Shown: positions 8,878-64,000 of the stretch, one piece after another
How positions within the stretch are numbered: position 1 is the stretch's first letter
Layout of the letters: each line of letters opens with the position of its first letter
Source of the DNA: Thermococcus sp. JdFR-02
Lineage (GTDB): Archaea > Methanobacteriota_B > Thermococci > Thermococcales > Thermococcaceae
Assembly: GCA_002009975.1 (NCBI GenBank)
Contig: MTLP01000012.1
Span: forward strand, 161,698 to 225,697
Direction: 5' to 3'
Length of the DNA: 64,000 bases
The notes under the pieces: model-generated
The model's input: only the letters and a program-made list of their open reading frames with translations
Told to the model about the DNA's origin: nothing
The model's database searches: none
Position numbers and translations under genes: made by a program

Positions 8878-8899
8878 ACATTTAAATATTCTTAATTCT

Positions 8900-8916: not shown

Positions 8917-8918
8917 CA

Positions 8919-11024: not shown

Positions 11025-11167
11025 TCCTCTTTTTTATAACTTGTCAAAACTAAGGTGATAATATTCTTTTGCTTTTTTCAATACTCTTGATAATTAAAGT
11101 TCAGGTATTTAAAGACGACACAACCTTTTTTAGTTATCAAAAAAGAAATCTTTTAGGTGTGATAACA

Positions 11168-12365: not shown

Positions 12366-12551
12366 TCATCCTTCCCAAATGCTTTTCCATTCGAATTCAT
12401 CTTTCTCTTCTTTTTCTTCAGTTTCTAATATTATCTCTGGTTCTTTTTCTCTTTCTTTCCACATGGTAGCGGCTAACCAAAGAAGGGCAAATGGACCAGT
12501 AAGGATCAGAAGGAAAATAAAGAACAATGCTTTTTTCGTTTTTTCGTTCAT
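12366..12551 (-). CDS. Small single-TM protein with acidic tail
   Basis: 61 aa; TM helix followed by an E-rich tail. Confidence 0.55.
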   Translation of the reverse strand: MNEKTKKALFFIFLLILTGPFALLWLAATMWKEREKEPEIILETEEKEEKDEFEWKSIWEG

Positions 12552-12787
12552 ATTTTAAATTTAGACTTTTAGATATATGAAATTAATCCTTCACTTTTCT
12601 TGTGTTATGAAAACATCGAAAATTTTTCACATTTATTCAAATGTATTTTGTCATAATACAGCTTTAAAGTTTAAACATTAAAATCAAGATTTAAAAAACT
12701 TTATTAACCAGAAATGTGTAACATGTGAGTGCAAAACCTGTCCCGCTTTTCTTTTCTGCGAGATGGTTTTGCTTTGGTGGTGATAGC

Positions 12788-13198
12788 GTGAAGAAATTAA
12801 TAATAATGTTGGGATTTTGGTTAATAAGCTTACCTTTAGTGCTATGTCAAGAAAGTGAAGATTACTTAACGGGTCTCAGTGCAAGCGGACCATTCATCGG
12901 TGTTGCAGTGATAATTGCCCTTTTCTTACTGCTCTGGGTTCTTCGAAAGTTCCTGCTTAAGCTCATTCTCGTGTCCATTGTGGCGGTGATCTTTGGAGGG
13001 ATTGGTTTACTTCTAGGTTCATTTTTCCTTCCAGCTTTTCAGATCCCATTAGGAGGGGCATTCCTTATCTTTGGTCTCTGGGTATCGCTGAAGCTTCTGA
13101 AAGCTCAGAAAGGAGAGATTGTAGTTACGAGAAGTTCCTTAGGAGACAGGGACAGCGATGTGGACTTCTTCTGGGGGGATGATGAATGGGAAGATTAA
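12788..13198 (+). CDS. Membrane protein with acidic C-terminus
   Basis: GGTGA RBS, GTG start, signal peptide plus 3 TM. Confidence 0.65.
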   Translation: MKKLIIMLGFWLISLPLVLCQESEDYLTGLSASGPFIGVAVIIALFLLLWVLRKFLLKLILVSIVAVIFGGIGLLLGSFFLPAFQIPLGGAFLIFGLWVSLKLLKAQKGEIVVTRSSLGDRDSDVDFFWGDDEWED

Positions 13199-13270
13199 GG
13201 GAGCTTTCAAGAGCCTTCGGCGTGAAGGTCAAAGGTGATGATTGGTTAATCAGTTTTTGAGGTGATTAGG

Positions 13271-13666
13271 ATGGGAAAGTTCTCTACATTTGTGGTGATA
13301 ATCATCCTGCTTGGTGCAGGAGGATGGTACCTAAATTACCATCTCAAGCTTTCGAACTACGATCAAGAATTGCTATTCAATGATGAGAAAACTGTTCAGG
13401 GGGTAGTATACTACACATCAGACGTAATCCCTGCGGGAACTTACAGAATTGAGATTGACACAGAGGGAAGTGTCAATGATGTGGAAATATTAGATGCTAA
13501 CTCGGGCAATGTTATTCACACGCCTCTTATGGTTGTCAAGTCTGACTTCATATACACCTCAGACGTGCCTTTTAGAGTTAGAGTGGAGTTTCATCCAGAG
13601 GGAGATAGTTATATCAAATACCGCACTTCGGTGAAGGTCTATAGGCTGACTAAGAAAGAAAAATAG
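13271..13666 (+). CDS. Membrane-anchored hypothetical protein
   Basis: GGTGA RBS, N-terminal TM, beta-rich domain. Confidence 0.65.
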   Translation: MGKFSTFVVIIILLGAGGWYLNYHLKLSNYDQELLFNDEKTVQGVVYYTSDVIPAGTYRIEIDTEGSVNDVEILDANSGNVIHTPLMVVKSDFIYTSDVPFRVRVEFHPEGDSYIKYRTSVKVYRLTKKEK

Positions 13667-49877: not shown

Positions 49878-50028
49878 TATCGAGTTACTGCATATCATTA
49901 TAAATCTCCTCTGCATAACTATCAATTATTCGCTTTTAAGATTTTTGATAATTGTACTTTAGTGAACTCTTATTATCATGAATGCATGTAATTTAGGAAC
50001 CTTGTTGATATTTTATCATTGAGTTTTC

Positions 50029-50787
50029 CTAAATACTCAAGTGCATAAAGTCTCTTGCTATGATGTATCCATAATCCCTGACCTTATCTTCAAGTTCCTC
50101 GTGGGTGTAATTGCTGTGGCTTATATGGGTGAAAACAGTTTTCTTAGCATTAACAAGCTGAGCAAATTTTATAGCATCATCAACACCTAAATGCGTCTTT
50201 GGAATGCTGTACTTATGAGTCATTTCACATATTAACAAATTAGCCCCCTCTATTTCGTCTATCAGCTCTTTATTCTCTAAAATCTCTGGACCAGTATCTC
50301 CAGTTATCACTATTTTTCTCTTTTCAATTTCCAAAATAAACCCTCCAGCTATATCTATGGGGTTGTGGATTACTTGAAAATGCTTTACTTTAAAAATCCC
50401 GAAGTTGTACCATTTTCCAAAGTTTAATGGAACATATTTCCACTTTCTTTCTCCTAAGAAAAGCTCTTGTAGATGTTTTGCAACTTCTAGGGCTTTTTCA
50501 TGAGAATAAAATGTAATTTCTTTAAATATCTGCAAATCTGGGAGACCAAATACGTGATCAAAGTGTGCGTGAGTTATGAAAACCTTCCCAATTCTGAGGT
50601 TCAGATGTTCCAGATGATAGTGTAGATCTGGACTGGGGTCAATCAAAGCTCCAATTTGAGGGATGTATAAAGAAAATCGAGTTCTTTTATATTGGGGATA
50701 TTTCCTTGCCCTAATGCAGTTTTCACAGCTGCACAAAGGCTTTGGAGTTCCACTATAGGAGCCAGAACCTAAAATTATAATCCTCAC
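50029..50787 (-). CDS. MBL-fold hydrolase (PhnP-like)
   Basis: P...C.C.NC, THAHFDH, GDT, THISH. Confidence 0.88.
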   Translation of the reverse strand: MRIIILGSGSYSGTPKPLCSCENCIRARKYPQYKRTRFSLYIPQIGALIDPSPDLHYHLEHLNLRIGKVFITHAHFDHVFGLPDLQIFKEITFYSHEKALEVAKHLQELFLGERKWKYVPLNFGKWYNFGIFKVKHFQVIHNPIDIAGGFILEIEKRKIVITGDTGPEILENKELIDEIEGANLLICEMTHKYSIPKTHLGVDDAIKFAQLVNAKKTVFTHISHSNYTHEELEDKVRDYGYIIARDFMHLSI

Positions 50788-51452
50788 TACACACCACCCA
50801 TTAGCTTTTTCCAATATTCATTGTTATTAACTATAATCCACCATTTTCTAAGTTCCTTTCTTTTTTCCTTGTAGTCTGGATGAAATTTCTCAACAACTCT
50901 CCAAAAATCTTTGCTATGATTAAGCTCAATGAGATGGGCTAGCTCATGAGTGACAACGTAATCAATTAGTTCATCTGGTAAAGCTACTAAAGCTAAATTT
51001 AGAGCTAAATTTCCCTTTGAAGAACAACTCCCCCACTTGTTTTTGTGCTTTCTTATAAAGATCTTTTTTGGAGTCTTTCCAATTTTGGTGGTTCTTTCCT
51101 TGATTATTTTTCCAACTTTGTTCCTTAACTCTTTTTTGAGAAATCTTTCAAGGTTTTTAAGTGTAGAGACGAAGATTGTGTTCCCAACTATTTCTGTCCT
51201 TTTCCCCTCTTCAACTTTGTAGAACTTACCAAAAACAGGGAATCCGATATTTGCGTTCCTTTTATGCTTATCAATTTCCTCTAATCTCTTTAAAATCCAA
51301 TCTGATTTTAGTCTTAAAACATTCTCAACGTTCTTTCTTGGTGCCACAATCCTTAAAATTCCCTCGGGAAGTACATAGATTCTAACATATTTAACTGGTC
51401 TAATCACGACTTCATACTTTATGCTTCTTCCGTTTAGAGTAACTTCATTCAT
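50787..51452 (-). CDS. YgjP/DUF45-like zinc-dependent hydrolase
   Basis: WGSCS, YVVTHELAHL...NHS..FW. Confidence 0.88.
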   Translation of the reverse strand: MNEVTLNGRSIKYEVVIRPVKYVRIYVLPEGILRIVAPRKNVENVLRLKSDWILKRLEEIDKHKRNANIGFPVFGKFYKVEEGKRTEIVGNTIFVSTLKNLERFLKKELRNKVGKIIKERTTKIGKTPKKIFIRKHKNKWGSCSSKGNLALNLALVALPDELIDYVVTHELAHLIELNHSKDFWRVVEKFHPDYKEKRKELRKWWIIVNNNEYWKKLMGGV

Positions 51453-51516
51453 AAAATTATTTTATTGTGAGACAAATTTATAAGCTTAGTTGATATTGGA
51501 GCAAGATAGCCAACAG

Positions 51517-52554
51517 TTACTCCCACAGTAGATTTTTTATTAAGGGACGAAGTTTTGGATGAACATATTCTCCGTTCTCAATAATTTTTATTCCATCTCC
51601 AATTACTGTTGGATTTAGGCAGATTCCATCTGTATGGCTTTTTGCTGAACCTACTTTTCCTTTAAAGCTTTTTGCTTGGTTTCCTAAACCCCATTCCACT
51701 GCGCCCCACACTCTTTCGTCTTCTAAAATATTTCCAGTGAGCTTTGCTCCAGGATTGCATCCGTAAGAAATGTGGGCTATTCTAAACATGTTTGGATCAT
51801 TAAAACCTTTTAACCATCTTTCAAATATCTTTGCCTCTATTCCTCCTTCTATTCTCGTAATGGTTCCCTCTTCGATCTCTAATATAATTGGTTCTTTTAA
51901 TATTCCTAACTCTTGCGGGGGCCACACAGAGCCATCAAAAACTATCGTCCCGTTTATGGTTTCTTCTATTGGTGCCCAGTCAACTTGTCCAATAAGCATA
52001 TAGTCTCCAGGTCCTTGGACATCCCCTTCAGTAAAAACAGGTCTTCTTAGGTCGTTTTCAAATTCAACATCTGTTCCTGCAGGAGTTGTAATTCTCATTT
52101 TCCTTGTATTTCTTGTAATTTCTGCTAAAATTTTTTGGAATTTGAGTAGTTGGGGAATATTTACCATTCCTATGGTTCTCACAATCATATCACTTGTCAT
52201 TCCAACTAAACAGATATAACGAACAGTTCCTTGAGCCATTACGCTGTCCCAAGGTGTAGAATAAAGAAGCCAACTCTTATTGAATTCTATCCACACGTCT
52301 GCATTTTTCAAAGCAGCCTCTAAAGGTTTTAGGGGTAAGTAAGGATCAGCAGCTTTTCCAACATGAGGAGGCATTGAGTACCAAAGAACTAGAGGTTTTG
52401 CTTTTAAAATCTTAACAGCTTTTGCGGTTGCTTCAACTACATGCCAATCACTTCCAGTATCTGCAGTTATGACTACATTTTCATTCTCTTTAATTTTTAG
52501 AATATCTTTTGCTAGCTTATATGCTGCTTCTTGGACTTCTAGTGAGAGATTCAT
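51517..52554 (-). CDS. M29/aminopeptidase T-like metallohydrolase
   Basis: TPAGTD, NGTIVFDG, H.SYG.NP.A..TG.ILEDER..G, SHTDG. Confidence 0.72.
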   Translation of the reverse strand: MNLSLEVQEAAYKLAKDILKIKENENVVITADTGSDWHVVEATAKAVKILKAKPLVLWYSMPPHVGKAADPYLPLKPLEAALKNADVWIEFNKSWLLYSTPWDSVMAQGTVRYICLVGMTSDMIVRTIGMVNIPQLLKFQKILAEITRNTRKMRITTPAGTDVEFENDLRRPVFTEGDVQGPGDYMLIGQVDWAPIEETINGTIVFDGSVWPPQELGILKEPIILEIEEGTITRIEGGIEAKIFERWLKGFNDPNMFRIAHISYGCNPGAKLTGNILEDERVWGAVEWGLGNQAKSFKGKVGSAKSHTDGICLNPTVIGDGIKIIENGEYVHPKLRPLIKNLLWE

Positions 52555-52556
52555 TT

Positions 52557-53228
52557 TTAATCACCTACTGAGAAAAGGTTTAGCTCTATGATATCTTCTA
52601 ACACTTTAATTGCAGCCCCAACTGGGTCGACTATTGGAACATTGGCTGATTTTTGGAGTTCTTTAGCAAATCCCGCTAATCCAGTGCATCCAAGTATTAC
52701 AGCATTTGCTCCATCTTTAACGACTTTAGCAACTTCCTTTTTAAGAAGTTCAATGGTATAATCTCTATCGTTATTTATTTCAGGAACAGAGAGGCTTATG
52801 CCTTTAATACTTACAACTTTGTTTTCCATCTCATATCTTGCTACTAATTCGTTGAATAATGGTGGTGCTGTCTTAGAAACCGTCACAATACCGATCTTTT
52901 TTCCAATTGTAGAAGCAATTGCTAAAGAGGCTTGACACGGTCCTATTGTTGGTGTTTTAATCAAAGAGCGTATTACCTCAACTCCTGGATCAAGACAACA
53001 ATTCACTATTATTCCGTCATATTTCTCATGAAGTTCTAAGGCTTTCTTTACAACATGTGGAATTACTCCTACTTCTGCCTCTCTCGTCTCAATAGATTCT
53101 GGGCCGTTATCTAAACTAACTACATCAATCTCAGTGTTTGAAGAAGCAAAGCTTTGATAAATCTTTTTATCGGACTCATTCCATTTGTCTGTTCCGACGG
53201 GATTTATAATTAAAATTCGCTTTTTCAT
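52557..53228 (-). CDS. Hydantoin racemase (Asp/Glu racemase superfamily)
   Basis: INP, GPESIE, NCCLDPG, LGCTG, P.VDP. Confidence 0.88.
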   Translation of the reverse strand: MKKRILIINPVGTDKWNESDKKIYQSFASSNTEIDVVSLDNGPESIETREAEVGVIPHVVKKALELHEKYDGIIVNCCLDPGVEVIRSLIKTPTIGPCQASLAIASTIGKKIGIVTVSKTAPPLFNELVARYEMENKVVSIKGISLSVPEINNDRDYTIELLKKEVAKVVKDGANAVILGCTGLAGFAKELQKSANVPIVDPVGAAIKVLEDIIELNLFSVGD

Positions 53229-53261
53229 AATTCCACCTCGATAATGGTAGAAAAGGAGACG

Positions 53262-54353
53262 TTACTTTTCCCCATGTTTAAGTTCAATTGGCATGTACTC
53301 TATATCCAGTCCGAGATATTTTGGTCCAAATACTTCTAGACCCTTGGGAGTTCTCCATATTTCTGGCGCTGGAAATCCAATAACGGCATATTCTTTTCCT
53401 TCTTGAATGTTTGGATTCGTGACAGGTGCTCCGTCTAATGTTAAAACACTAATTAAATCTGGAATTGTGACATCTACTTCACCATTTCTCCAAGAGATTA
53501 AGTTTTCATTTTTGAACCAAATTTTGTATATTTCTCCTTTGAATTCATCAATTCCCTCAAGCTCAAATTCACCAATGGTAAAACCATTTTCATCTTTCCA
53601 ACCTGACTTCATTGCAACACCTTTAAAGAGTAAGAATCCATTTCCAGCTGTTATAAGTGCATTAATTACGTCTTCCCCTTTTTCTTTTGCAATTCTCATG
53701 GCTCTTCCTATTTTTAGGGTGTAGCTAATGGCGTTTTTTACAATCGAGTCTTTGATGTCTCTTCCTTTTATTGGATGGGATGTCACCCCTACATTGGTTT
53801 CTATTGTAGCTGCTATGGCTCTAACTATTTTTTCTGCTTGAAAATCGTTCTTAACCTTGGAAATAACTATTTCGTCTCCAAATGGTGTTACAACTGAAAA
53901 TGGCGTCATTTTAAGACCCATTATATAGAATGTGGTGTGTTGTAATTCTGGAACTGATCTTCCAGCAGGATCTCCGTCAATTATTGGGATTCCAAGTTTG
54001 GCAGCTGTTGCCAAGGCTACCGCTGTATTAGCACCACCAAGTTCAGTAGAAATCACGCCATAAAACTTTTCTCCTATATATTCTTCAAGCAGTCTAAATG
54101 ACCTTGCAGCTTCTCCATCTTCATAAACGGACTCTATCTTTCCTCTAGTTAAGGAACCAACAAAGTATGGTGTTGCAACTGTTTTGTTATCTGGTATCTC
54201 ATCCAAACTTGCTAAAAGGAATTTTCTTCCTTTCTTTACCTCTTTTTTAATTAGTTCCCATCCTTCTTTTGGATCTCCCCCACCACCAGTTCCTAAAACT
54301 GTACATCCATCAATTATATCTCTTAAATCTAATTCGTTTAGTTCTCGAACCAT
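53262..54353 (-). CDS. DUF917 family protein
   Basis: G..VLGTGGGG, ELGGAN, DGD..GR.VPE, F.NENL, PDLI. Confidence 0.85.
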   Translation of the reverse strand: MVRELNELDLRDIIDGCTVLGTGGGGDPKEGWELIKKEVKKGRKFLLASLDEIPDNKTVATPYFVGSLTRGKIESVYEDGEAARSFRLLEEYIGEKFYGVISTELGGANTAVALATAAKLGIPIIDGDPAGRSVPELQHTTFYIMGLKMTPFSVVTPFGDEIVISKVKNDFQAEKIVRAIAATIETNVGVTSHPIKGRDIKDSIVKNAISYTLKIGRAMRIAKEKGEDVINALITAGNGFLLFKGVAMKSGWKDENGFTIGEFELEGIDEFKGEIYKIWFKNENLISWRNGEVDVTIPDLISVLTLDGAPVTNPNIQEGKEYAVIGFPAPEIWRTPKGLEVFGPKYLGLDIEYMPIELKHGEK

Positions 54354-54357
54354 TTTT

Positions 54358-55041
54358 TCACCTCCCAGCAAATAGTCCCCGTTTTCCATGTCTTAGAATA
54401 AAAGATAAGGAGCGTGCAACAGAATAAGTAATTAACAATGGTTCTAAAACTGGGATCTGGTATTCTTTCCAAATCTCCTTCTTTAGCCTTTCAGCAATGC
54501 TGCTAAATCCGGTACATCCTAAAACTACTACATCAGCTCCATCTTCTATTGCCTTTACACATGCTTCTTTTGTCACGTTATAAAGCTTTTCCTCTCCAGA
54601 CATGATCTCTTTTACAGAGAATTTTACTTTTCTTACCGAAATCAGTTTTTCAAAAAGACCATATTCTCTAGTTTGCATTCTAGTCCAAGATATTACATTA
54701 TCTCCCGGTCCTATAACAGAAAAATCACCTAGCATAGCTGCAATGTGCATGGTAGTTTCCCCAGCTCCAAAAACTGGAATATCAAGGTTTTCTCTAAGCT
54801 CAAAGAGACATGGATCTGCAAAACAATTTATCACAATTGCTCGAGCGGTTTTGGGTATCAATTCTTTTAAGTTTTTCAGAATTTCTGCACATCCCCAAGT
54901 TTTTTGATAGAAGCTCTCTATAGTCTCTGGACCTTCTTTTAAAGAAACTACTTTGAACTTGTCTGTTGGATAGTATTTTAAGAGATAATTTTCAACATTC
55001 TTTTCAAAATATCCTTTTATTGGGTCTAAAATCACTATCAT
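54358..55041 (-). CDS. Hydantoin racemase (Asp/Glu racemase superfamily)
   Basis: GPETIE, NCFADP, GADVVVLGCTG. Confidence 0.85.
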   Translation of the reverse strand: MIVILDPIKGYFEKNVENYLLKYYPTDKFKVVSLKEGPETIESFYQKTWGCAEILKNLKELIPKTARAIVINCFADPCLFELRENLDIPVFGAGETTMHIAAMLGDFSVIGPGDNVISWTRMQTREYGLFEKLISVRKVKFSVKEIMSGEEKLYNVTKEACVKAIEDGADVVVLGCTGFSSIAERLKKEIWKEYQIPVLEPLLITYSVARSLSFILRHGKRGLFAGR

Positions 55042-56001
55042 CTAAATCTCCCCCGCAAAATGACATCTAACAAGATGTCCTTCCTTAACTTCAATTAGCA
55101 AGGGTTCCTTTCTTTTGCAAATCTCCTGTGCATAGGGACATCGTGTATGAAAAGGGCAACCAGCAGGTGGATTTAAGGGACTTGGAATTTCTCCTTTAAT
55201 TACGATTCTTCTCCGTTTACTTTTTTGCTTTGGATCTGGCACAGGTATTGATTGTAAGAGCATTCTAGTATAGGGATGGAGAGGATTATCAAAAACTTGT
55301 TCAATTGTTCCAAGCTCTACAATCTTTCCAAGATACATTACTCCGACTCTATTGCTTAAATATCTAACAAGACCAAGATCATGTGAGATGAATAAATAAG
55401 TCAATTTCTTTTCTTTTTGTATTTTCTCAAGCAAATTTAGTACTTGAGCTTGAACAGAAACATCTAAAGCTGAAGTAGGTTCATCTAAAACCAAGAACTC
55501 GGGTTCTAATGCTAAAGCTCTAGCAATAGCAACCCTTTGACATTGACCTCCACTTAATTCATCAGGATACTTACTTGCATGCTCCTCACTTAAGCCAACA
55601 CTTTCTAAAAGCTCTAAAACTCTATCTTCAATGTTTTTGTAGTTATACTCTTTTAAAGGCTCTGCAATTATGTCGAACACTGTCATTCTTGGGTTTAAAG
55701 AGGAATAGGGATCTTGATAAATCATTTGCATTTTAGGCTTTATTTTTTTAAGTTCTTCTTCTGAAAGTGCTGTAATCTCTATGTCATTGAAGAAAACTTT
55801 TCCATCTGTTGGTTCATAAAGTCTTAATATTGTCCTTCCAGTTGTAGATTTTCCACTTCCACTTTCTCCGACTAAAGCGAAAGTTTCTCCATCGTTTATT
55901 ATAAATGATACATCATCAACGGCTTTTAGATAAAGCGTCTTTTTTCTAATAAAGCCTTTAGTTATTGGAAAATATTTCTTCAAATGCTCAACTTTAATCA
56001 T
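55042..56001 (-). CDS. dppF: Di/oligopeptide ABC transporter ATPase (DppF/OppF-like)
   Basis: GESGSGKST, LSGGQ, DEPTSALD, HPYT, C-terminal Cys cluster. Confidence 0.9.
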   Translation of the reverse strand: MIKVEHLKKYFPITKGFIRKKTLYLKAVDDVSFIINDGETFALVGESGSGKSTTGRTILRLYEPTDGKVFFNDIEITALSEEELKKIKPKMQMIYQDPYSSLNPRMTVFDIIAEPLKEYNYKNIEDRVLELLESVGLSEEHASKYPDELSGGQCQRVAIARALALEPEFLVLDEPTSALDVSVQAQVLNLLEKIQKEKKLTYLFISHDLGLVRYLSNRVGVMYLGKIVELGTIEQVFDNPLHPYTRMLLQSIPVPDPKQKSKRRRIVIKGEIPSPLNPPAGCPFHTRCPYAQEICKRKEPLLIEVKEGHLVRCHFAGEI

Positions 56002-56965
56002 CAGGATTCCCTCCATAAAGATGACACGCAACAAAATGGCTTTCTTTATATTCTACAAGTGCTGGCTTCTTTAGTTTACAGCTATCTCTTACAAACTCAC
56101 ACCTTGGATTGAACCTACATCCACGTGGAGGACTTATTAAGCTCGGAACTTGACCTCTTAGTGGTTTAAGATGCTTTTTGTACCTTGGATCTGGAATTAC
56201 TGAAAGTAAGCCTTGAGTGTAAGGATGTAGGGGATTTTCGAAGAGTTCTTCTGTATCTGCGATTTCTACAATATTCCCAGCATACATGACCCCAACTCTA
56301 TCACAACTCTCTGCAACAACTCCTAGATCATGGGTAATTAGCAAAACGGAGAATCCAAGCTCCTCTTTTAAGTTTAAAATTAAATCTAAAATCTGTTTTT
56401 GAATTGTGACATCTAAAGCCGTTGTAGGTTCATCTGCAATTAAAAGAGAAGGATTTGAAGATAATGCCATTGCAATCATTACTCTTTGCCTCATGCCGCC
56501 ACTTAGTTCGTGTGGATAAGAATTTAAGATTCTATCAACATCAGGCAATCCAACTTCTCTTAAAAGTTCTTTAGCTTTTTTATAAGCTTCCTCTGTATCT
56601 ATTTTATTATGCGTGGTTATTATGTCTATCATCTGTTCTTTGATCTTAAAAAGGGGATTTAAGGAAGTCATGGGGTCTTGAAAAATTATTGAGATTTCTT
56701 TCCCCCTTATTTTTCTCATTTCTTCTTCTGATTTTTTAAGCAAATCTTTACCTTTGAAGATTATTTTTCCTGAAATTTCTGCATTTGAAGGTAAAAGCCT
56801 AAGAATACTCATGGCAGTTACACTCTTTCCACAGCCTGTTTCTCCAACTAAACCAAATACTTCTCCCTCATATATCTTTAAATTAACTCCATTTAATACC
56901 TTCACGAGTCCCCAGAGGGTTCTAAAGTTAACGTAGAGGTTTTCTATTGACAAAAGTTCCTTCAT
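55994..56965 (-). CDS. dppD: Di/oligopeptide ABC transporter ATPase (DppD/OppD-like)
   Basis: [34 protein letters not shown]. Confidence 0.9.
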
Positions 56966-57816
56966 AGGAACTTCCTCCTTAATCTTGGGTCCATAATTTC
57001 CCTTAAGGCATCACCAAGCAGATTAAAAGCCATAACTGTGATGAATATAGCCAGACCAGGAAAAACTGGATACCACGGATAGTTAAGGAAGTATTCCTTT
57101 CCTTCGCTTACCATTAAACCCCAATCGGGTGTTGGAGGTTGAACGCCCAAACCAAGAAAGCTTAAAGCTGCAGCTTCAAGTATTGCTGAACCAATGTCCA
57201 TTGTAGCCTGAATTATTAGTGGAGAAATGGAGTTTGGAAGTACATGTCTGAATATAATTTTCCATTCGCTTATCCCCATTCCTTTTGCAGCTTCAACATA
57301 AGGTCTTTCTTTTATTGAAATTGCCATTCCTCTAACAAGTCTTGTATACCATGGCCACCAACTTATAGATAGAGCAAGAATTGCATTAATAAGGCCTCTT
57401 CCAAGAGTAGTGGCAATTAGTAAAGCTAAAAGCAAGGGTGGGAAGGCTAGAAATATGTCTGTTATTCTCATTATTATTAAATCAATTTTTCCACCATAAT
57501 AACCAGCTATTAACCCTAGGGGGAGTCCTATTAATATTGCTAATAAGACTACTGAAAAGCCTATAAGTAAAGAAGTTCTTGAACCATAGATTACTCTGCT
57601 AAGTATATCTCTTCCTAAGTGATCAGTTCCAAAAAAGTGCTTAGAGCTTGGTGGTTGTAATCTCTCTTTAAGATTTGGTTCTCCCTTTGCTTGCTCGGGG
57701 TAAGGGGCTAAGAGTGGTGCAAATATTGCAATGAATAAAAGGATTAAAATAATCATCAAGCCTACAACCGAAAGCTTATTTCTAAAGAGTATCTTAATGA
57801 ACTCTTTTTTCCTCAT
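56962..57816 (-). CDS. dppC: Di/oligopeptide ABC permease (DppC-like)
   Basis: GTDHLGRD, EAA motif, LSFLGLG.QPP.PDWG. Confidence 0.9.
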   Translation of the reverse strand: MRKKEFIKILFRNKLSVVGLMIILILLFIAIFAPLLAPYPEQAKGEPNLKERLQPPSSKHFFGTDHLGRDILSRVIYGSRTSLLIGFSVVLLAILIGLPLGLIAGYYGGKIDLIIMRITDIFLAFPPLLLALLIATTLGRGLINAILALSISWWPWYTRLVRGMAISIKERPYVEAAKGMGISEWKIIFRHVLPNSISPLIIQATMDIGSAILEAAALSFLGLGVQPPTPDWGLMVSEGKEYFLNYPWYPVFPGLAIFITVMAFNLLGDALREIMDPRLRRKFL

Positions 57817-57825
57817 TTTTCTCCC

Positions 57826-58845
57826 TCACAACTGAATTCTTGGGTCAAGGCAAACTTGAATCAAATCAACAATCAAGTTTATGAAAACATAGGCAGTTGC
57901 AGCAACAATCGTAACACCTAAAACTGCTGGATAATCCATACTAAGAATGGAGTATGCCGCATATCTTCCTAAACCGGGCCAATTAAAGATTAATTCTACC
58001 AAAAATGCTCCAATTAGTGTATATGCAAAGGATAAACCTATTGTAATTAAAGCTGGTGCAATTGCATTTTTTAATGCATATTTGAAGTAAATCCTCTTTT
58101 TTGGTAATCCATAAGCCCAAGCGGTTCTAATATAATTCTCTTGCAAAACTTCAATCATCATCGATCTCACTTGTCTTGTTATCAGCCCAATTGGGTACAT
58201 GGCAAGTGTTATCGCTGGGAGTATCATATGCTTAAGTACATCAACAAATACTACAAAGTTCCCAGTTACAAGTGAATCAAATAAGTAAAACCCAGTAATC
58301 ACCTTTAGTGGATGTTCAAGCATTGTTATTGTGTCCACTCTTCCTGCAAGAGGAAGTAGATGTAAATATTTGAAAAATATTAATTGTAACACGATTCCAA
58401 ACCAAAAAGTTGGTAGAGATACTCCACTTATTGCTAATACTCTACTTAAGTTGTCCAACCATGAATCCTTTTTAACAGCGGAATAAACTCCGAGAGGGAT
58501 ACCAATTAAGATTGCAATGAACTCAGCAAATAGAATCAATTCAAAGGTTGCAGAAAAAGCAGATTTTAAATCTTGAGCTACTGGATTGTGAGTTCGTATT
58601 GATATCCCTAAATCTCCATGGAGAAGACCAACAAGGTAGTAATAATATTGTTTTATCAATGGCTCATTCAAATGTAGCTCCTCTCTAGCTTTCTCAATAG
58701 CTTCTACCGTTGGATGTGCACCCACCCATAATGCTGCAGGATCAGAAGGGATAACTCTGGAAATAAAAAATACAATTGTAACAACACCAAAAATCACAAG
58801 TATTGAAAGCATGAGTCTGTAAGCGATGTATTCTTTGAGCTTCAT
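57826..58845 (-). CDS. dppB: Di/oligopeptide ABC permease (DppB-like)
   Basis: GDLG.S, S.P.FW, E.IF.WPGLG, DPRI. Confidence 0.9.
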   Translation of the reverse strand: MKLKEYIAYRLMLSILVIFGVVTIVFFISRVIPSDPAALWVGAHPTVEAIEKAREELHLNEPLIKQYYYYLVGLLHGDLGISIRTHNPVAQDLKSAFSATFELILFAEFIAILIGIPLGVYSAVKKDSWLDNLSRVLAISGVSLPTFWFGIVLQLIFFKYLHLLPLAGRVDTITMLEHPLKVITGFYLFDSLVTGNFVVFVDVLKHMILPAITLAMYPIGLITRQVRSMMIEVLQENYIRTAWAYGLPKKRIYFKYALKNAIAPALITIGLSFAYTLIGAFLVELIFNWPGLGRYAAYSILSMDYPAVLGVTIVAATAYVFINLIVDLIQVCLDPRIQL

Positions 58846-58883
58846 TTTTATACCCCCTGATTAAATAAAAAATAAAGATAAGG

Positions 58884-60491
58884 CTAAGATCTCTTGTGTA
58901 GGTCGTAGAAGAACACTACTTGTGGATATCCTGGGTTAGATTCAAATCCGACTATACTTTTGTGGATGACATACACATCGTCGGGGTTATAGAAGAAAAT
59001 TGCCGCTGCATCTTCGACTAGTATTTCTTCTGCTTTTTTGTATAATTCTTTAGCTTTTTCTACATCAGTACCTTCAAATGTTACAGCTTCATCAATCAGT
59101 TTATCAAACTCTGGATTACAGTAATAGCATAGGTTAAAGTTTATTGTTTCTTCACAGTGAAACATGTTAAAGAGGAAATCGTATGGTGTTGGATAGGTTG
59201 GCCACCAGTAGAAGATAAGGATATCTTGAGCTTTTTGTGGATCACTTTTAGCTAAAGCCCATTGTTGCTCCCAGTTCATTGGTCTAATTTCCAACTCAAT
59301 TCCTAATTTTGACCATTCTGCCTTGAGAAGCTCAGCAACTTTTTTCTCAGCTTGATCGCCTTGAGTATACGTTAACACAAGCTTAAATCCACCATTAGGA
59401 TATCCTGCTTCTGCTAAAAGTTCCTTAGCTTTGTCAATATTGTGCTCATAAGTTTTCATGTCCTCAAAATAACCCAACATTCCTTTTGGAATTGGACCCT
59501 TTGCTATTGAGCCGTAGCCATGTAAAACATATTCTACAATCTGATCATATGGAACAGCATAACTTAGTGCTTGTCTAACAAGTTTGTTGTCTAAAGGTGG
59601 TTTTTTCGTATTTAGCATTCCATACAATTCTTGATAAGAAGGAGTTTGCTTAACGATAACATTTGGATCTTTCTGAAGTTTTGGTAAGTCATCCAATGGT
59701 AAGTCTCTTGTAATGTGTATTTCCCCACTAACAACCATTTGTTCTCTTAAAGATGAATCTGGGACAATCTTTATTATTGCAACATCAAATTGATCCTCTT
59801 TCCAGCCTCCCCAATACTCGTCAAACTTTTTAAGGACGACTTCAGTTTTTGGATCATATTTCTCTATCATATAGGGTCCAGTTCCTGCATCATGACCTTG
59901 ATTGAGGTAGTCTGCTATGGCATTATCATCACCAATTTTTGAAAGTTCTTTGCTATCCATTATATAAGCACCATAAGCTGAAGAGGCTATTAACGGTAAG
60001 TTTGCTGGATATTTCAGCTTAAACTTTATAGTATAGTCATCTAAAATCTCAATTTTTTCAATAGGATCCCATATAAAAGCTGGTCCTTGTCCCATTCTTA
60101 TTGTTCTTTCAATTGACCATTTAACATCTGCAGCTGTCATTTCATTTCCACTATGAAACTTTACTCCTTTTCTTAAATGAAAAGTCCATTCAGTCCCATC
60201 TTCATTGCTTTCCCATGAAGTTGCAAGCCATGGCTTTAATCCCTGTGGAGTATATTTAACTAAGCACTCATAGACATTGGCGAGTGTAACTATTGAATTA
60301 GAAAACTCTGTACTAGGATCTAAGGTTATCATCTCACTTCCATATCCGTATATTACAACATTAGTGGTCTTTTTTTGTTCTGTTGTTTCAGAAGAAGGAG
60401 TGGATGTCTTTTCTCCACTTATACAACCACTTGCTACAATACCTAATACAATTATTAAAGACAAAGCCAAGCCAACTAATATTTTTTTCAT
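58884..60491 (-). CDS. dppA: Family 5 peptide-binding lipoprotein (DppA-like)
   Basis: Lipobox ASGC; LDP, LRKGVKFH.G, GTGPY, VRQAL. Confidence 0.9.
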   Translation of the reverse strand: MKKILVGLALSLIIVLGIVASGCISGEKTSTPSSETTEQKKTTNVVIYGYGSEMITLDPSTEFSNSIVTLANVYECLVKYTPQGLKPWLATSWESNEDGTEWTFHLRKGVKFHSGNEMTAADVKWSIERTIRMGQGPAFIWDPIEKIEILDDYTIKFKLKYPANLPLIASSAYGAYIMDSKELSKIGDDNAIADYLNQGHDAGTGPYMIEKYDPKTEVVLKKFDEYWGGWKEDQFDVAIIKIVPDSSLREQMVVSGEIHITRDLPLDDLPKLQKDPNVIVKQTPSYQELYGMLNTKKPPLDNKLVRQALSYAVPYDQIVEYVLHGYGSIAKGPIPKGMLGYFEDMKTYEHNIDKAKELLAEAGYPNGGFKLVLTYTQGDQAEKKVAELLKAEWSKLGIELEIRPMNWEQQWALAKSDPQKAQDILIFYWWPTYPTPYDFLFNMFHCEETINFNLCYYCNPEFDKLIDEAVTFEGTDVEKAKELYKKAEEILVEDAAAIFFYNPDDVYVIHKSIVGFESNPGYPQVVFFYDLHKRS

Positions 60492-60834
60492 TTTTACATT
60501 CCTCCACTACTTATCTATAGTTGCAGCCAAATTTTTACATATTGTAAGGTATGTTGTCATTTTTTGTCAGATTGACAGCTTTATGAGACATCTAGTTTAA
60601 GTTCTTGTATTTTTTACATACTTGTATCATGTATATGTAGTGAATTTTTCAAACTTGTATATGTACATTTAACATATTTAATAATATCTGTTCAAATTCT
60701 TCACAAGTATATGATAAATTTGTTCATCTATAGGGGTTTAATATTAAACACCATGAGGATTTACAGATTTGTCATTTTTGAACGACTAAAAACATTAAAG
60801 AATTAAAAATGGTAGTAATGCATAATTATGTACT
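60492..60834. promoter_or_regulatory. AT-rich control region of the ABC operon with repeated motifs
   Basis: TGTCA-GAT-TGACA palindrome (60565-60577), three CTTGTAT copies, two TGTCATTTTT copies. Confidence 0.45.
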
Positions 60835-61374
60835 CTAAACATGCTTGTATTTCATTGGTTTTGTAAAGAGTTTTGGACTAGAGACCGCTGGAAGAACTTT
60901 GTATTCTGCGATTATTTTCCGCCCTATTAAAAAGTCTTCAATTGTTTTCTTGAGTTCTTTAAAATCTTTATCAAAGAACTTTATCACGATATCATACTCT
61001 CCAATGTATTCATCGACTTCAAATACCTTTGGATTATTCACGGCTTCTTGAATAAACGCTTTGATCTCTTCCTTTTTTGAACTTTCTTTAAATTTTATTA
61101 TAACATCTGCAGAGGCTAGACCAAATTCCTCAAAGATTAGAAGACCAATAACTTGAAGATAGCCTTTTTCTTGTAGTGCAAGTCTTCTTCTCCTTGCTGT
61201 TGGAGTAGAAACTCCAACAATCCTAGCTAATTCTGTATCTGGAAGTCTCCCATTTTCCCTTAATGCCAAATATATCATTACATCTATGTCATCAAGTTCC
61301 CCTTTGCTTATCTGCTTCCAAAACTCAATTTCCTTCCTATCCCATTTCTTATCTTGCAAATTAATTTTGTTCAT
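60835..61374 (-). CDS. Lrp/AsnC family transcription regulator
   Basis: LDDID..I...LRENGR....ELA..VGVS..T.RRR, GEYD; GGAGGG RBS. Confidence 0.9.
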   Translation of the reverse strand: MNKINLQDKKWDRKEIEFWKQISKGELDDIDVMIYLALRENGRLPDTELARIVGVSTPTARRRRLALQEKGYLQVIGLLIFEEFGLASADVIIKFKESSKKEEIKAFIQEAVNNPKVFEVDEYIGEYDIVIKFFDKDFKELKKTIEDFLIGRKIIAEYKVLPAVSSPKLFTKPMKYKHV

Positions 61375-61471
61375 ATTGTTCCCTCCTTTAAATACTAATG
61401 ATAAGAATAATAACAACAGATATATAAGGTTTTAAATACAGCTATGAAACATCTGAACTCTTGTTTAAATT

Positions 61472-61675
61472 TCAATCTGTGCCTGCTATAGTTATTGCTA
61501 TCAAGACTATTTTCCATCCAATTTGAGTTCCATGTTCATTAAAGTATGGCAAAATTCTTACTCCTACATGTCTGTATTTCTCTTTAAAGTTTTCACGCAA
61601 TTTTTCAGCTATTTTCTGTAATTCCTCCTTTTCAATACTTACATTGTTTATTATAAACTCTACAATCTTTTTCAT
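61472..61675 (-). CDS. 67-aa hypothetical protein coupled to the AlbB-like gene
   Basis: ATGA overlap and GAGGAG RBS. Confidence 0.6.
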   Translation of the reverse strand: MKKIVEFIINNVSIEKEELQKIAEKLRENFKEKYRHVGVRILPYFNEHGTQIGWKIVLIAITIAGTD

Positions 61676-61974
61676 TTTCTCTCCTCTTTTATTATTTTGG
61701 CTAGCTCTCGAGATAACTCGTCTAAGAAGTTAACAAAAGCTTCTTCATCGTACATAACTAAATCTTTCTTCTCCTCAATTAATTCCTGTAATTTTAGAAT
61801 TTGCTCATTAGCCTTTCCTTCTTTTTCCATGATATCTATTAGTCTTGAGGCGGCATCAACTAATCTGAGAGGACCATAGAGTATTGGCTCATCAACACAA
61901 CCTCTGGCACTCGTAATTAAAAATGCTAAAAGCTTAAAGTGATCATCTGTTAAAATGTTCTCCAAACTTTTCAA
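61672..61974 (-). CDS. AlbB-like (DUF6092) small helical partner of cyclodipeptide oxidase
   Basis: LLAFLITSARGCVDEPILYGPLRLVDAASR matches the AlbB pattern L.SS.RG...EP..YG..R..D.A.R (recalled); strong AAGGAGGTGG RBS inside the upstream gene. Confidence 0.78.
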   Translation of the reverse strand: MKSLENILTDDHFKLLAFLITSARGCVDEPILYGPLRLVDAASRLIDIMEKEGKANEQILKLQELIEEKKDLVMYDEEAFVNFLDELSRELAKIIKEERK

Positions 61975-62479
61975 TGTGAACCACCTCCTTCAAAGGTCTT
62001 CTTTTTGGAGGTTTGGGCATAAATTTGGGATAACCTACGCTAATGATCAGCACAGGCTCAACATGGTCTGGAACATCTAAAAGCTCCTTCAATGCAAGTT
62101 TGTTAAATGAAACTACTGGACATGAACCTATACCTAATGCATAAGCTGTTAACATCATATTTTGTGCAGCCATTGAAATATCCATCAAAGCAGTCTTTAC
62201 TCCCAATTTTCCACCTCTTTTTGCCCGTTCATGATTTATACAGAGAATTATTAAAGCAGAAGGATTTCCAAAGAGTCCAGGGGATATTAATTTTATTTTT
62301 TCTATTGTGCCTTTATTTTTAACTAAAATAAATTCCCAAGGTTGAATGTTACTCCCACTTGGCGCCCAAACTCCAGCTTCAAGAATTTTCTTCAAGTCTT
62401 GCATCGGAATGTCCTTGTCTTCAAATTTCCTTATACTTCTTCTTCCTCTAATAGCTTCAAATATTTCCACCACACCCAC
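61943..62479 (-). CDS. Nitroreductase-fold flavoprotein, AlbA (cyclodipeptide oxidase A)-like
   Basis: RRSIRKF, WAPSGSN.QPW, SPGL.G.P, GIGSCPV.SF, RR...EVV; overlaps the AlbB-like gene by 32 nt. Confidence 0.82.
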   Translation of the reverse strand: MGVVEIFEAIRGRRSIRKFEDKDIPMQDLKKILEAGVWAPSGSNIQPWEFILVKNKGTIEKIKLISPGLFGNPSALIILCINHERAKRGGKLGVKTALMDISMAAQNMMLTAYALGIGSCPVVSFNKLALKELLDVPDHVEPVLIISVGYPKFMPKPPKRRPLKEVVHIEKFGEHFNR

Positions 62480-62480
62480 C

Positions 62481-63188
62481 TCAAATTCTTTTTTTAGAGT
62501 GGGGCTCTCTAAAGCTTAGTTTGCTATGAGGTAACCCCAACCTTACTAAATCTTCCGCTATCTTTAGAGCAACTAAACCTGGTTCAATTACTGGAATACC
62601 GAGTCTTTGTTGAAGTTCTTTGCCTATACCAATAAGACTACCACAACTTAATATTATCAACTCGGCTCCATCTTCTTCTATAGCCTTCTCAGATTCTTCC
62701 AAAAGCTGTTTCTTTATTTTTTCCATATCTTTTACAATATCCAAAACCAAGAACTTTGTTATTCTTATTGAGGCAAGCTTGCTTTCTAAACCGTAAATTT
62801 TAATTGCATCATACGTCTTTCCTTTTGAATTTTCATCTCCAACCCCTACAATTGAAAACTTTCTTGCAAGCATGGAAGCTACATGAAGGCTTGCTTCCCT
62901 TATTCCTACCACTGGAATTTTAAGCTTCTCTTTTATTGCAAATAATCCTGGGTCACTAAAACAATATATGATCACGGCATCATAGCCTTCTTTCTCAGCT
63001 TTTTCTGCTTCCTTTAATGTTTCCAATTCAGCCCATGCTATATCATAGTATTGCTCTATTGATTCAGGACCTCTTTTTAGATTTACCACGGTTATTTCAG
63101 TATCTGAGTCTTTGATTTCTTCATAGGCCTTCTTAATCTTCTCATTCCAAACATGAGTGGAAACTGGTACAATTACCTTTATTCTCAT
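62481..63188 (-). CDS. Hydantoin racemase (Asp/Glu racemase superfamily)
   Basis: GPESIE, YCFSDPG, GAELIILSCG, IPVIEP. Confidence 0.85.
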   Translation of the reverse strand: MRIKVIVPVSTHVWNEKIKKAYEEIKDSDTEITVVNLKRGPESIEQYYDIAWAELETLKEAEKAEKEGYDAVIIYCFSDPGLFAIKEKLKIPVVGIREASLHVASMLARKFSIVGVGDENSKGKTYDAIKIYGLESKLASIRITKFLVLDIVKDMEKIKKQLLEESEKAIEEDGAELIILSCGSLIGIGKELQQRLGIPVIEPGLVALKIAEDLVRLGLPHSKLSFREPHSKKRI

Positions 63189-64000
63189 TTTTCACCCTCA
63201 AGCAATGCTACAGCAGCAAATATCTTTGCATCTTCTACCAGATTCTCTATCTTGGCGTATTCATTTACTTGGTGTGCTGTCTCATCTACCGTACTCCAGA
63301 CTGCTGCTGGAATTCCAATTTCTCTAAAGAATGTTGCAAAAGTCCCTCCTCCAATTCCTCCAACTCTAGGTGAGATATTCCTTAGTATTTTGAGAGCCTT
63401 TACGAGCAATTTTACAATCTCAGAATCTGGAGATGTAGGCAAGGGGGCTTTACTCTTTCTAAGTACGTTAATCTCAATCTTAGCACCATACTTCTCTTCA
63501 AAGGTTTTCGCTAACTCATGTATATCTTTAAGAATCTCATCTAAGTCATGCTCTGGAAGAACACGACAATCAAAGTAAATTATATCTTCTCCGGGAATTA
63601 TGTTTATCGCATCAACGTTCTTCTCTTTTTTTGTAGGCTCAAAAGTACTTATGGGCGGATCAAATAGGTCATTTTTATCTGAATATTTTTCATAAAGCAT
63701 ATCATGCAAAGCTGTGGCAAATCTCATTCCAACTAAGTGGGCGTTTATTCCCTTCTCCGGACTCATGGCGTGAGTTTGTTTACCAATCGTTTTTACTTGA
63801 AATGCTAGCCTACTCTTCTCTGCAACTTCAATAAATGAACCATCCGAGTTACCTGCATCAGGGACTAAGACTAGGTCGTTTTTTCTAAACAACTTTGGAT
63901 GGTTTTTGATTAGCCATTTTAATCCGTACTTGCTTCCTGTTTCTTCGTCACTAACAAATGCTAGGATTATTGTTCTTTTTGGTCTTATTCCCAAGTTCAT
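63185..64000 (-). CDS. M20 (DapE/ArgE-like) metallohydrolase (partial, start beyond window)
   Basis: SDEETGS, AEK, G...HA..P..GINA, N.IPG, GGGT, AHQ.NE. Confidence 0.9.
   Translation of the reverse strand: MNLGIRPKRTIILAFVSDEETGSKYGLKWLIKNHPKLFRKNDLVLVPDAGNSDGSFIEVAEKSRLAFQVKTIGKQTHAMSPEKGINAHLVGMRFATALHDMLYEKYSDKNDLFDPPISTFEPTKKEKNVDAINIIPGEDIIYFDCRVLPEHDLDEILKDIHELAKTFEEKYGAKIEINVLRKSKAPLPTSPDSEIVKLLVKALKILRNISPRVGGIGGGTFATFFREIGIPAAVWSTVDETAHQVNEYAKIENLVEDAKIFAAVALLEGEK

Follow-up and report, generated by a model that had tools for sequence, protein, structure and literature searches.

Classical hydantoin-utilization (hyu) clusters consist of a racemase, a hydantoinase, an L-carbamoylase and a permease. 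Gene clusters of another kind, built around homologs of the two cyclodipeptide oxidase (CDO) subunits, CDOA and CDOB, without a cyclodipeptide synthase (CDPS), were catalogued by Andreas and Giessen (2024, Nat Commun; PMC11055893), with Thermococcus named among the anaerobes that carry them. According to the same study, 88% of the catalogued CDO-like clusters have no synthase and no assigned function, and the CDPS-free clusters are enriched in hydantoin racemases, DUF917 proteins, AroM, dipeptide/oligopeptide transporters of the ATP-binding cassette (ABC) type, OPT transporters and peptidases. Here we examined a locus of this kind in Thermococcus sp. JdFR-02. The DNA analyzed, referred to as the window, is a stretch of 64,000 nucleotides (nt) corresponding to positions 161698-225697 of contig MTLP01000012.1 (contig C2), which ends at window base 64000. 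Between window positions 51517 and 64000 it holds 15 tightly packed open reading frames (ORFs), all on the minus strand, which in the order 64000 to 51517 encode an M20 metallohydrolase, racemase 1, an AlbA-like protein, an AlbB-like protein, a product of 67 amino acids, an Lrp regulator, a five-gene Dpp-type importer, racemase 2, a DUF917 protein, racemase 3 and a NicX-like protein. Intergenic distances range from -41 to +55 nt, the sole exception being a gap of 343 nt ahead of the binding-protein gene. The sequence-only reading that preceded this analysis had given the genes, their order, common orientation and coordinates correctly, but its count of 16 genes is replaced here by 15 ORFs.

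We conclude that the locus is a fresh example of the published, functionally uncharacterized cluster type. As in the clusters described in PMC11055893, CDOA and CDOB homologs without a CDPS are combined with PF01177 racemases, DUF917, AroM, importers and peptidases, the cysteine for covalent flavin attachment is absent, and the hosts are archaea and anaerobes. Four features go beyond that paper, as far as its text was available to us, namely two alternative partner modules, the frequent adjacency of AlbAB to NicX-like/M29 genes, a probable two-module locus and an altered residue in the binding protein. With the hyu clusters the locus shares a hydantoin-racemase-family enzyme, a ring-acting enzyme, an M20-type hydrolase and an importer. 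It differs from them in that no HyuA/B was found in this genome, in that the importers are of the peptide-type ABC and OPT families rather than an NCS1 permease, and in the presence of three to five racemase paralogs, AlbAB and NicX-like/M29 proteins. Our preferred reading, to which we assign a probability of roughly 0.45, is that the locus serves the import of small peptide-derived cyclic amides, most likely 2,5-diketopiperazines, and their breakdown to amino acids, and that the window contains half of a two-module locus.

It had been claimed from the sequence that no such system was known. The cluster type is in fact already in print, with Thermococcus named, but import and catabolism of heat-formed diketopiperazines are not stated in the available portions of PMC11055893. 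Literature searches on cyclodipeptide oxidase, DUF917 and diketopiperazine yielded no paper on import or catabolism of heat-formed diketopiperazines by such clusters, and in the literature on diketopiperazines and hyperthermophiles none of the matches listed dealt with catabolism, as judged by title or the start of the abstract. The only relevant match in the degradation and hydrolase literature was a 2013 study whose abstract describes little as known of diketopiperazine breakdown (PMC3852281).

Distribution of the cluster and its partner module

We surveyed the 99 genomes of the order for DUF6092, the family of the AlbB-like protein, and for DUF917. The former was present in 15 genomes, from 5 of 7 genera, and the latter in 20; 14 genomes had both, one had DUF6092 only, six had DUF917 only and 78 had neither (Fisher p 1e-11, a value that is overstated because the genomes are related). 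Thus DUF917 occurs in 14 of the 15 genomes with DUF6092 and in 6 of the 84 that lack it. We compared 20-kb regions from 10 of the 14 relatives with a match, the other four matches being on short contigs. AlbAB adjoins module genes in all ten, in permuted gene order. Six loci carry the Dpp/racemase/DUF917/racemase/NicX-like module, with AlbAB placed ahead of Lrp-Dpp, the arrangement of the window, or following the NicX-like gene; three carry an OPT-type module (racemase/DUF917/DUF1177/AroM/M29/OPT/NicX-like), and one (L028) has parts of both. In this last locus (genome G081, 7147-13442) a divergent Lrp-like gene (48% identity) comes after AlbA-AlbB, and the orthologous Lrp and Dpp genes lie about 4.4 kb farther on.

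AlbB-like proteins with 60-84% identity were found across Thermococcales, Desulfurococcales, Ignisphaera, Zestosphaera, Fervidicoccus and Pyrodictiaceae, and this span suggests that the gene has been exchanged among hyperthermophiles. A wider pattern scan, limited to one genome per species, returned 59 loci, whose gene content was read by tblastn with the JdFR-02 proteins (E <= 1e-6). The archaeal ones belong to Thermococci, DHVE2, Thermoplasmata, several Thermoproteota, Korarchaeia-like organisms, Caldarchaeales, Bathyarchaeia and Asgard, and the bacterial ones to Chloroflexota, Clostridia, Moorellaceae and Spirochaetales. Among the 37 loci of at least 10 kb, AlbA was recognized in 36, DUF917 in 23, a NicX-like/M29 protein in 20, a racemase in 13 and a family-5 binding protein or OPT transporter in 17. 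The commonest immediate neighbor of AlbAB is a NicX-like/M29 gene, which flanks it directly in 17 of the 59 loci. Synteny therefore extends, as had been proposed for checking, across Thermococcales (10 of 10 relatives), other archaea and anaerobic bacteria, and chance co-location is rejected by the cross-tabulation within the order together with the cross-phylum loci.

Some loci have AlbAB in other surroundings. In the five module-free loci that we sampled, the contexts were a formamidase-like amidase accompanied by an SSF transporter and by a protein with the metallo-beta-lactamase fold; an FrhB/FdhB-like iron-sulfur flavoprotein with an aldehyde:ferredoxin oxidoreductase; and MFS/citrate-type transporters with an integrase. 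A transporter-plus-amidase context is seen in a Desulfurococcales locus (L060:7627-12355), in which AlbAB is preceded by a sodium:solute symporter gene and followed by genes for acetamidase/formamidase-family and metallo-beta-lactamase-fold proteins.

The cluster runs off the end of its contig within the M20 gene, and the manner in which it does so bears on what lies beyond. Contigs C2 and C30 both end within M20 paralogs (64% identical), at the same codon and with almost identical last ~90 bases, and contigs C5 and C10 both start with an identical stretch of ~100 nt that encodes the M20 N-terminus; the middle of the M20 gene, ~340 nt, is missing from the assembly. A 179-nt contig that maps to 63900-64000 has a depth of 174 in run X1, possibly the source sample, versus 90 for its neighbors, which fits a collapsed two-copy repeat. 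In the relatives G013 and G033 a C10-type OPT gene is followed by a C30-type M20 gene (75-77% vs 59-60% identity), and G013 has the order NicX-like, M20, racemase 1, AlbA, AlbB. By elimination and from this synteny, C2 most likely continues across the assembly gap into the start of C5, and C30 would correspondingly continue into the start of C10.

The probable continuation (C5:177-7895) encodes, in one direction, a racemase, DUF917, DUF1177, AroM, M29, OPT and a second NicX-like protein, AlbAB not being among them, and a divergent second Lrp gene lies upstream. Its M29 paralog matches PF02073 (2e-17), its NicX-like protein is 55% identical to that of the window, and its DUF917 protein scores 313 and 276 bits against the thiohydantoin desulfurase models, under their cut-offs of 450 and 440. 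Joined, the two modules would form a locus of ~23 genes, with a combined toolkit of two importers, four racemases plus AroM, two DUF917 proteins, two NicX-like proteins, M29, DUF1177, M20, AlbAB and two regulators. The two M20 paralogs, which are 64% identical over the 3' two-thirds and nearly identical at their 5' ends, and at which the assembly is broken at four contig ends, show a pattern resembling the outcome of a recent gene conversion or a partial duplication. The gene for a 627-residue OPT-like transporter and a methyltransferase gene flank the second copy. In one complete genome (L038, G011:C1:887070-888944) the ortholog of the C10-type OPT gene has one in-frame TGA, possibly marking a pseudogene or a sequencing error.

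Predicted properties of the encoded proteins

The AlbA-like protein (61943..62479; this and all following cluster genes are on the minus strand) is predicted to be the flavin mononucleotide (FMN) subunit, with a nitroreductase fold (PF00881 E 8e-34). Among solved structures it is closest to albonoursin synthase AlbA (8uc3_A, E 1e-29) and next to the other solved CDO (9exv_A). The AlbB-like small subunit (61672..61974) is a DUF6092 protein (PF19585 E 2e-30) that matches AlbB of both solved CDO structures (E 8e-8 for 8uc3_D, and 3e-6), and with PF00881 and PF19585 both above cut-off the two-subunit CDO architecture is present. The AlbB-like gene has TTG as its start codon, preceded by a GGAGGTG site, and shares 32 nt with the AlbA-like gene; an overlap of some tens of nucleotides between the A and B genes is typical of CDOs (PMC11760959). 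We mapped the catalytic and flavin residues named in PMC11055893 onto the window proteins by pairwise alignment. Five of six named AlbB residues are kept (E33, P34, Y37, R41 and M78 correspond to window E29, P30, Y33, R37 and M74), with G79 replaced by Tyr, and E29, P30, Y33 and R37 are invariant in an alignment of 13 AlbB-like sequences. Seven of nine named AlbA residues are kept as well (R24, R28, S54, C135, P136, V137 and R175 correspond to window R13, R17, S43, C120, P121, V122 and R160); the flavin-linking C115 is replaced by Asp100, and G138, a backbone contact, by Val. In the characterized enzyme AlbB Tyr37 is the catalytic base, AlbA Ser54 is catalytic, and R24, R28 and R175 are the FMN-phosphate arginines (PMC11055893). 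According to that study the Cys115 needed for covalent 8-alpha-S-cysteinyl FMN is kept solely in CDPS-linked CDOAs, the CDOAs outside CDPS clusters, four with His apart, forming the class without covalent flavin, and this Cys may raise the flavin potential.

Since the catalytic Tyr and Ser and most named residues are kept and the genes overlap, the pair looks catalytically competent and would belong to this class without covalent flavin. It shares with AlbAB of Streptomyces noursei (8uc3) and with NdasCDO (9exv) the two subunits, the overlapping genes, the FMN-phosphate arginines, Tyr37/Ser54 and the Cys-Pro-Val at the flavin face, at ~30-35% identity by eye over the aligned part. It differs from them in having Asp in place of Cys115 and in the absence of a CDPS partner. 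Those two enzymes use O2, whereas the host of the window pair is presumably anaerobic; characterized cyclodipeptide oxidases require O2 and show no turnover without it (PMC11055893, PMC11760959). In a locus of an uncultured archaeon (L063:7724-12462) AlbAB has on one side an FrhB/FdhB-like iron-sulfur flavoprotein that is fused to a TrmB-type helix-turn-helix domain and on the other an aldehyde:ferredoxin oxidoreductase; this flavoprotein could serve an anaerobic AlbAB-like enzyme as electron partner.

Three PF01177 racemases are encoded in the window, 27-38% identical to one another (racemases 1 and 2, 38%). Racemase 1 (62481..63188; PF01177 E 5e-45), whose gene overlaps the M20 gene by 4 nt, is hydantoin/allantoin-racemase-like, its best solved relatives being a "putative hydantoin racemase" (3qvj, 2.7e-30), an allantoin racemase (5lfd, 1e-28) and the epimerase OpaE (9qbx, 6e-16); racemase 2 (54358..55041) and racemase 3 (52557..53228) match the family at E 4e-33 and 2e-41, respectively. 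The cysteines in the motifs YCFSDPG and LSCGS of racemase 1 align with cysteines in 3qvj, and both positions are cysteine in all three window racemases, the C5 racemase and AroM. In hydantoin-type racemases of PF01177 these two cysteines are catalytic. None of the racemases reaches an NCBIfam equivalog, the Asp/Glu-racemase model for example giving 27.9 bits against a cut-off of 93.1. OpaE, a stand-alone enzyme of oxepinamide F biosynthesis, inverts the alpha-carbon of a residue within a cyclized peptide heterocycle via an enol intermediate, and because of this chemistry ring-embedded residues are a documented substrate class for the racemase fold (PMC7530659). Being fungal, biosynthetic and only a distant homolog of racemase 1, OpaE demonstrates the feasibility of this chemistry but not its occurrence here.

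The DUF917 protein (53262..54389), now described in Pfam by the S-Me-THD_N and S-Me-THD_C families, has both the N-terminal (PF06032, E 1e-45) and the C-terminal (PF20906, E 9e-59) domain and is a candidate ring-acting hydrolase. It has the same two-domain architecture as the thiohydantoin and S-methyl-thiohydantoin desulfurases of NCBIfam (NF058529 and NF058532), enzymes that act in ergothioneine breakdown. It reaches 81 and 80 bits against these models, far from the cut-offs of 450 and 440, and since the partner-module protein likewise stays under them neither is an equivalog; the genomic context also differs. A literature search on thiohydantoin desulfurase found no paper, and the role of these relatives is taken from their NCBIfam and Pfam names. 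A structure model of the window protein, built from 31 sequences (predicted local distance difference test, pLDDT, 92.7), matched in the PDB only 2o3i, itself an uncharacterized DUF917 protein (template modeling, TM, score 0.78-0.79), and this match gives no structural support for DUF917 as a hydantoinase. Five DUF917 paralogs in a DHVE2 archaeon (L047) and three in a member of the Thermoplasmata (L059) lie beside M29-AlbA-AlbB, which suggests that the DUF917 step has diversified for several substrates.

The last gene of the cluster (51517..52554) encodes a metalloprotein of 345 residues with the M29 superfold and an altered metal site. It matches no Pfam or NCBIfam family, PF02073 (M29) included, and among solved structures only NicX of Pseudomonas putida, an Fe(II) 2,5-dihydroxypyridine dioxygenase, is related to it in sequence (7cn3, E 4e-16). 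A model based on 28 sequences (pLDDT 95.0) again gave NicX as the best match (7cn3/7cup, Foldseek E 2e-26, TM 0.76-0.78), followed by M29 aminopeptidases (~0.66) and CgnB. The Fe(II) ligands of NicX are His265, Ser302, His318 and Asp320 (PMC7910607). The first of these aligns with His in the window protein, and an H307-x-D309 motif, invariant in 28 sequences, fits His318-x-Asp320 by motif only, the pairwise alignment stopping at NicX residue 284. Of the substrate-positioning network His105-Glu177-His189, Glu177 is kept but both histidines are Tyr, so that two of three residues are not conserved. The M29 paralog of the same genome carries Glu and His at two ligand-like columns in which the window protein has His and Glu, respectively. 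From sequence and model together we assign the protein to a NicX-like clade within the M29 superfold, distinct both from NicX itself and from canonical M29 peptidases; the previous call of an "M29-like peptidase" is corrected accordingly. A dioxygenase role is doubtful, since the host is presumably anoxic.

The M20 metallohydrolase (63185..64000), cut in its 5' part by the contig end, is of the DapE/ArgE deacylase type. It scores 384 bits against NF010589 (PRK13983), above the cut-off of 333 even though the sequence comprises just 271 residues and aligns from profile position 142 onward, and the full-length ortholog in locus L031 has DapE-type desuccinylases as its best solved relatives (E 2e-18).

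All five components of a Dpp-type importer are encoded: a family-5 substrate-binding protein (58884..60491; SBP_bac_5 E 1e-99), a DppB-like permease (57826..58845; BPD_transp_1 E 6e-41), a DppC-like permease (56962..57816; BPD_transp_1 E 9e-43, OppC_N E 3e-13) and two ATPases with an oligo_HPY tail, one DppD-like (55994..56965; ABC_tran E 4e-32, oligo_HPY E 1e-22) and one DppF-like (55042..56034; ABC_tran E 4e-34, oligo_HPY E 7e-23). Architecture and families are those of E. coli DppABCDF. The N-terminal signal of the binding protein ends in ASGC, and its nearest solved relatives are the uncharacterized 5u4o, HbpA and E. coli DppA (E 6e-50); it lies far under every NCBIfam equivalog cut-off (for DppA, 178 bits against 1005). 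In E. coli DppA, D408 holds the dipeptide by its amino terminus and R355 by its carboxyl terminus (PMC8566422), and we read both columns from an alignment of 21 sequences. The D408 column has Thr in the window protein and in five archaeal ortholog rows (two of which, L032 and L040, are the same contig), Asn or Ser in six more distant cluster-linked proteins, gaps in two sequences and Asp in the other family-5 paralog of this genome, on contig C4. The replacement of the amino-terminus-anchoring Asp by Thr is a modest hint that the ligand of the archaeal binding proteins may have no free alpha-ammonium group. The R355 column has Thr in the window protein and no Arg in any of the 21 sequences; it was dropped as a clue to the ligand since the ordinary C4 paralog also lacks Arg.

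Direction, substrate and mechanism

Import and breakdown, not synthesis, is supported as the direction of the pathway. The window encodes a binding-protein-dependent ABC importer, its probable continuation an OPT transporter, and the genome, rated 99.99% complete, yielded neither a CDPS (no PF16715 match at E <= 1) nor a nonribosomal peptide synthetase (NRPS) condensation domain (PF00668). CDPS was also not among the genes recognized beside AlbAB in relatives, where tblastn used the cluster proteins only. A biosynthetic locus with its synthase hidden past base 64000 was rejected as unlikely, given that the contig ends in a two-copy repeat, that the likely C5 continuation carries transport and hydrolase genes, and that the genome lacks CDPS and NRPS condensation domain. 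No match to hydantoinase A or B (PF01968, PF02538) was found in the genome, a search that did not specifically cover the amidohydrolase-type D-hydantoinase, and the continuation is most likely more of the same toolkit. Uricase was likewise not found in the genome, and no allantoinase scored above cut-off, the best match to the model (199 bits vs 358) lying elsewhere on C2; these two results weaken purine/allantoin metabolism in this organism, with room left for imported allantoin. Of the catabolic import proposed in the sequence-only reading, the direction is supported by the importers and the missing synthase, and the substrate and each enzymatic step are inferred.

Diketopiperazines are favored as that substrate because every characterized AlbAB homolog acts on them (PMC11055893, PMC11760959), because both importers are of peptide type, because M29-like and M20 hydrolases fit peptide products and because several racemases fit a ring with two stereocenters. 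In the mechanism that we propose, a lipid-anchored family-5 binding protein and the ABC importer would take up the compound, as would the OPT transporter of the partner module. Two-cysteine racemases would interconvert the stereoisomers that arise at the alpha-carbons of the ring, its opening or processing would fall to DUF917 and the NicX-like metalloenzyme, and the M20 deacylase, with M29 and DUF1177 of the partner module, would release free amino acids or 2-oxo acids. The AlbAB-like flavoenzyme would be an add-on in part of the lineage, performing a redox step at the ring C-alpha/C-beta bond; given the loss of the covalent flavin link and a presumably anaerobic host, its acceptor may be something other than O2, or it may work as a reductase. 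The Lrp-type regulator would control the unit. Peptides cyclize and epimerize readily at such high temperatures, and if the proposal is confirmed it would explain how peptide-fermenting archaea recover heat-cyclized, peptidase-resistant compounds and would assign activities to DUF917, DUF1177, AroM and the clade of NicX-like proteins.

A more specific version, redox-assisted ring opening, we regard as improbable in its full form. Here the AlbAB-like enzyme would dehydrogenate a cyclic dipeptide with a non-O2 acceptor, the NicX-like protein would cleave the dehydro product, and M20 would split the resulting N-(2-oxoacyl)- or N-acyl-amino acid, yielding 2-oxo acids for ferredoxin-dependent energy metabolism, with racemases and DUF917 widening the range of stereoisomers and rings. 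The link from AlbAB to the NicX-like protein is speculative and rests on the dehydro-diketopiperazine being a tautomer of 2,5-dihydroxypyrazine, which is isosteric with the NicX substrate 2,5-dihydroxypyridine. Since the characterized AlbAB and NicX homologs use O2 and the host is presumably anaerobic, the real chemistry of both may differ from that of those homologs. If true, no catabolic pathway for diketopiperazines would have been defined genetically before this route, and the class to which most CDO-like enzymes belong would gain a function.

Several points weigh against diketopiperazine import and breakdown. The substrate of the cluster type is an inference, no member having a demonstrated one, and PMC11055893 itself proposes hydantoin/allantoin-related substrates, purine metabolism or secondary metabolites and states that experiments are needed. 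In 12 of the 37 loci that reach 10 kb, AlbAB is accompanied by no module gene. The nearest solved relatives of racemase 1 are allantoin/hydantoin racemases, the only named relatives of DUF917 act on thiohydantoins, to whose family the partner-module protein scores 313 bits, and the DUF917 model resembles no known ring-opening amidase, the PDB structure search giving nothing besides 2o3i at E <= 0.001. Characterized cyclodipeptide oxidases depend on O2, and the cluster encodes no electron partner for the AlbAB-like pair. In the D408 column of the binding protein, five clostridial orthologs (47-52% identical) from the same kind of cluster have Asp. Transcription is not established by the contigs of metatranscriptome library X6 that cover 50000-63886 at ~98% identity, because a DNA run (X3) of the same marine-sediment sample has a contig over the same stretch, likewise ~98% identical, making carry-over possible, and because the flanking genes are covered too.

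The main alternative is a non-classical hydantoin-utilization pathway for 5-substituted hydantoins or ureido compounds (N-carbamoyl amino acids, thiohydantoins), in which the racemases would be hydantoin racemases, DUF917 the ring-acting enzyme, M20 a carbamoyl- or acyl-amino-acid hydrolase and AlbAB an enzyme acting on the 5-substituent. We consider it unlikely, though it draws on the closeness of racemase 1 to solved allantoin/hydantoin racemases, on the relation of DUF917 to thiohydantoin desulfurases, weak in the window (~80 bits) and strong in the partner module (313 bits), and on the deacylase type of the M20 protein. L-carbamoylases, moreover, belong to M20. A reading of this sort has also been offered in print (PMC11055893). 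Set against it are the genome searches, which found no hydantoinase A/B, uricase or above-cut-off allantoinase, the peptide-type families of both importers, the position of both DUF917 proteins under the desulfurase cut-offs and the diketopiperazine substrates of all characterized AlbAB homologs; M29-type aminopeptidase homologs would also be hard to fit. Salvage of peptidase-resistant linear peptides with D-residues or blocked N-termini, the racemases then acting on free amino acids and AlbAB and DUF917 being peripheral, seems quite improbable. The Dpp-type and OPT importers, M20, M29 and the M29-like protein are all of peptide-associated families, PF01177 also includes Asp/Glu racemases (weak matches), and the amino-terminus-anchoring Asp is kept in the five clostridial binding-protein orthologs. 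This proposal leaves the recurrent cross-phylum linkage of AlbAB and DUF917 to the modules unexplained, however, and is at odds with the missing Asp in the archaeal binding proteins and with racemase scores far under the Asp/Glu-racemase cut-offs (27.9 vs 93.1 bits).

Two further proposals would give AlbAB a role outside nutrition. A protective function, in which the AlbAB-like and NicX-like proteins handle oxidized or dehydro cyclic dipeptides of neighbors or consume O2 on exposure, is in keeping with the O2 dependence of characterized homologs of both proteins, with the status of Thermococcus as an anaerobe (PMC11055893), with the accessory distribution of AlbAB (15 of 99 genomes of the order) and with the replacement of the flavin-linking Cys by Asp. 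It nonetheless has no direct support, three racemases, two importers and several hydrolases would exceed the needs of detoxification, and the NicX-like protein lacks two of the three residues of the NicX substrate network; we hold it to be very improbable. That the cluster makes or tailors a peptide-derived secondary metabolite, an option raised in PMC11055893 and suggested by AlbAB being a tailoring enzyme in Streptomyces, is hardly credible in a genome in which neither CDPS nor NRPS condensation domain was found, for a cluster rich in hydrolases whose two transporters are importer types and which has no exporter. The presence of the whole toolkit in one hyperthermophile, with thermostable proteins that should purify easily, makes this locus a good experimental entry point.

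Minor features of the locus and related sequences

The regulator gene (60835..61416) encodes an Lrp/AsnC-family protein (HTH_AsnC-type E 2e-10, with a weak match to the AsnC ligand domain), and its orthologs adjoin AlbB in relatives. Its true start is probably an ATG 42 nt downstream of the listed TTG. Just upstream of that TTG lies a TTATATAT box, which may be a promoter. Between the regulator and the AlbB-like gene is the orphan ORF of 67 amino acids (61472..61675), whose status as a gene is uncertain. It has a good ribosome-binding site (GAGGAG) and shares 4 nt with the AlbB-like gene; it matched no Pfam or NCBIfam family, and tblastn against 69 related loci and the remainder of the genome gave nothing below E 0.05.

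Beyond the cluster, after a gap of 64 nt, genes for a YgjP-like metallopeptidase and a metallo-beta-lactamase-fold protein follow in the same orientation (50029-51452). They are rarely found beside the cluster in relatives, the YgjP match occurring only in L053 and the metallo-beta-lactamase match only in L060, and the gene for the latter protein has a 67% identical paralog on contig C4. With alignments covering runs X1, X2, X3 and X6, window positions 50000-63886 are also represented by an identical or near-identical copy in marine metagenome X2, and runs of four studies besides that of the possible source contain half or more of the sampled words of this stretch.

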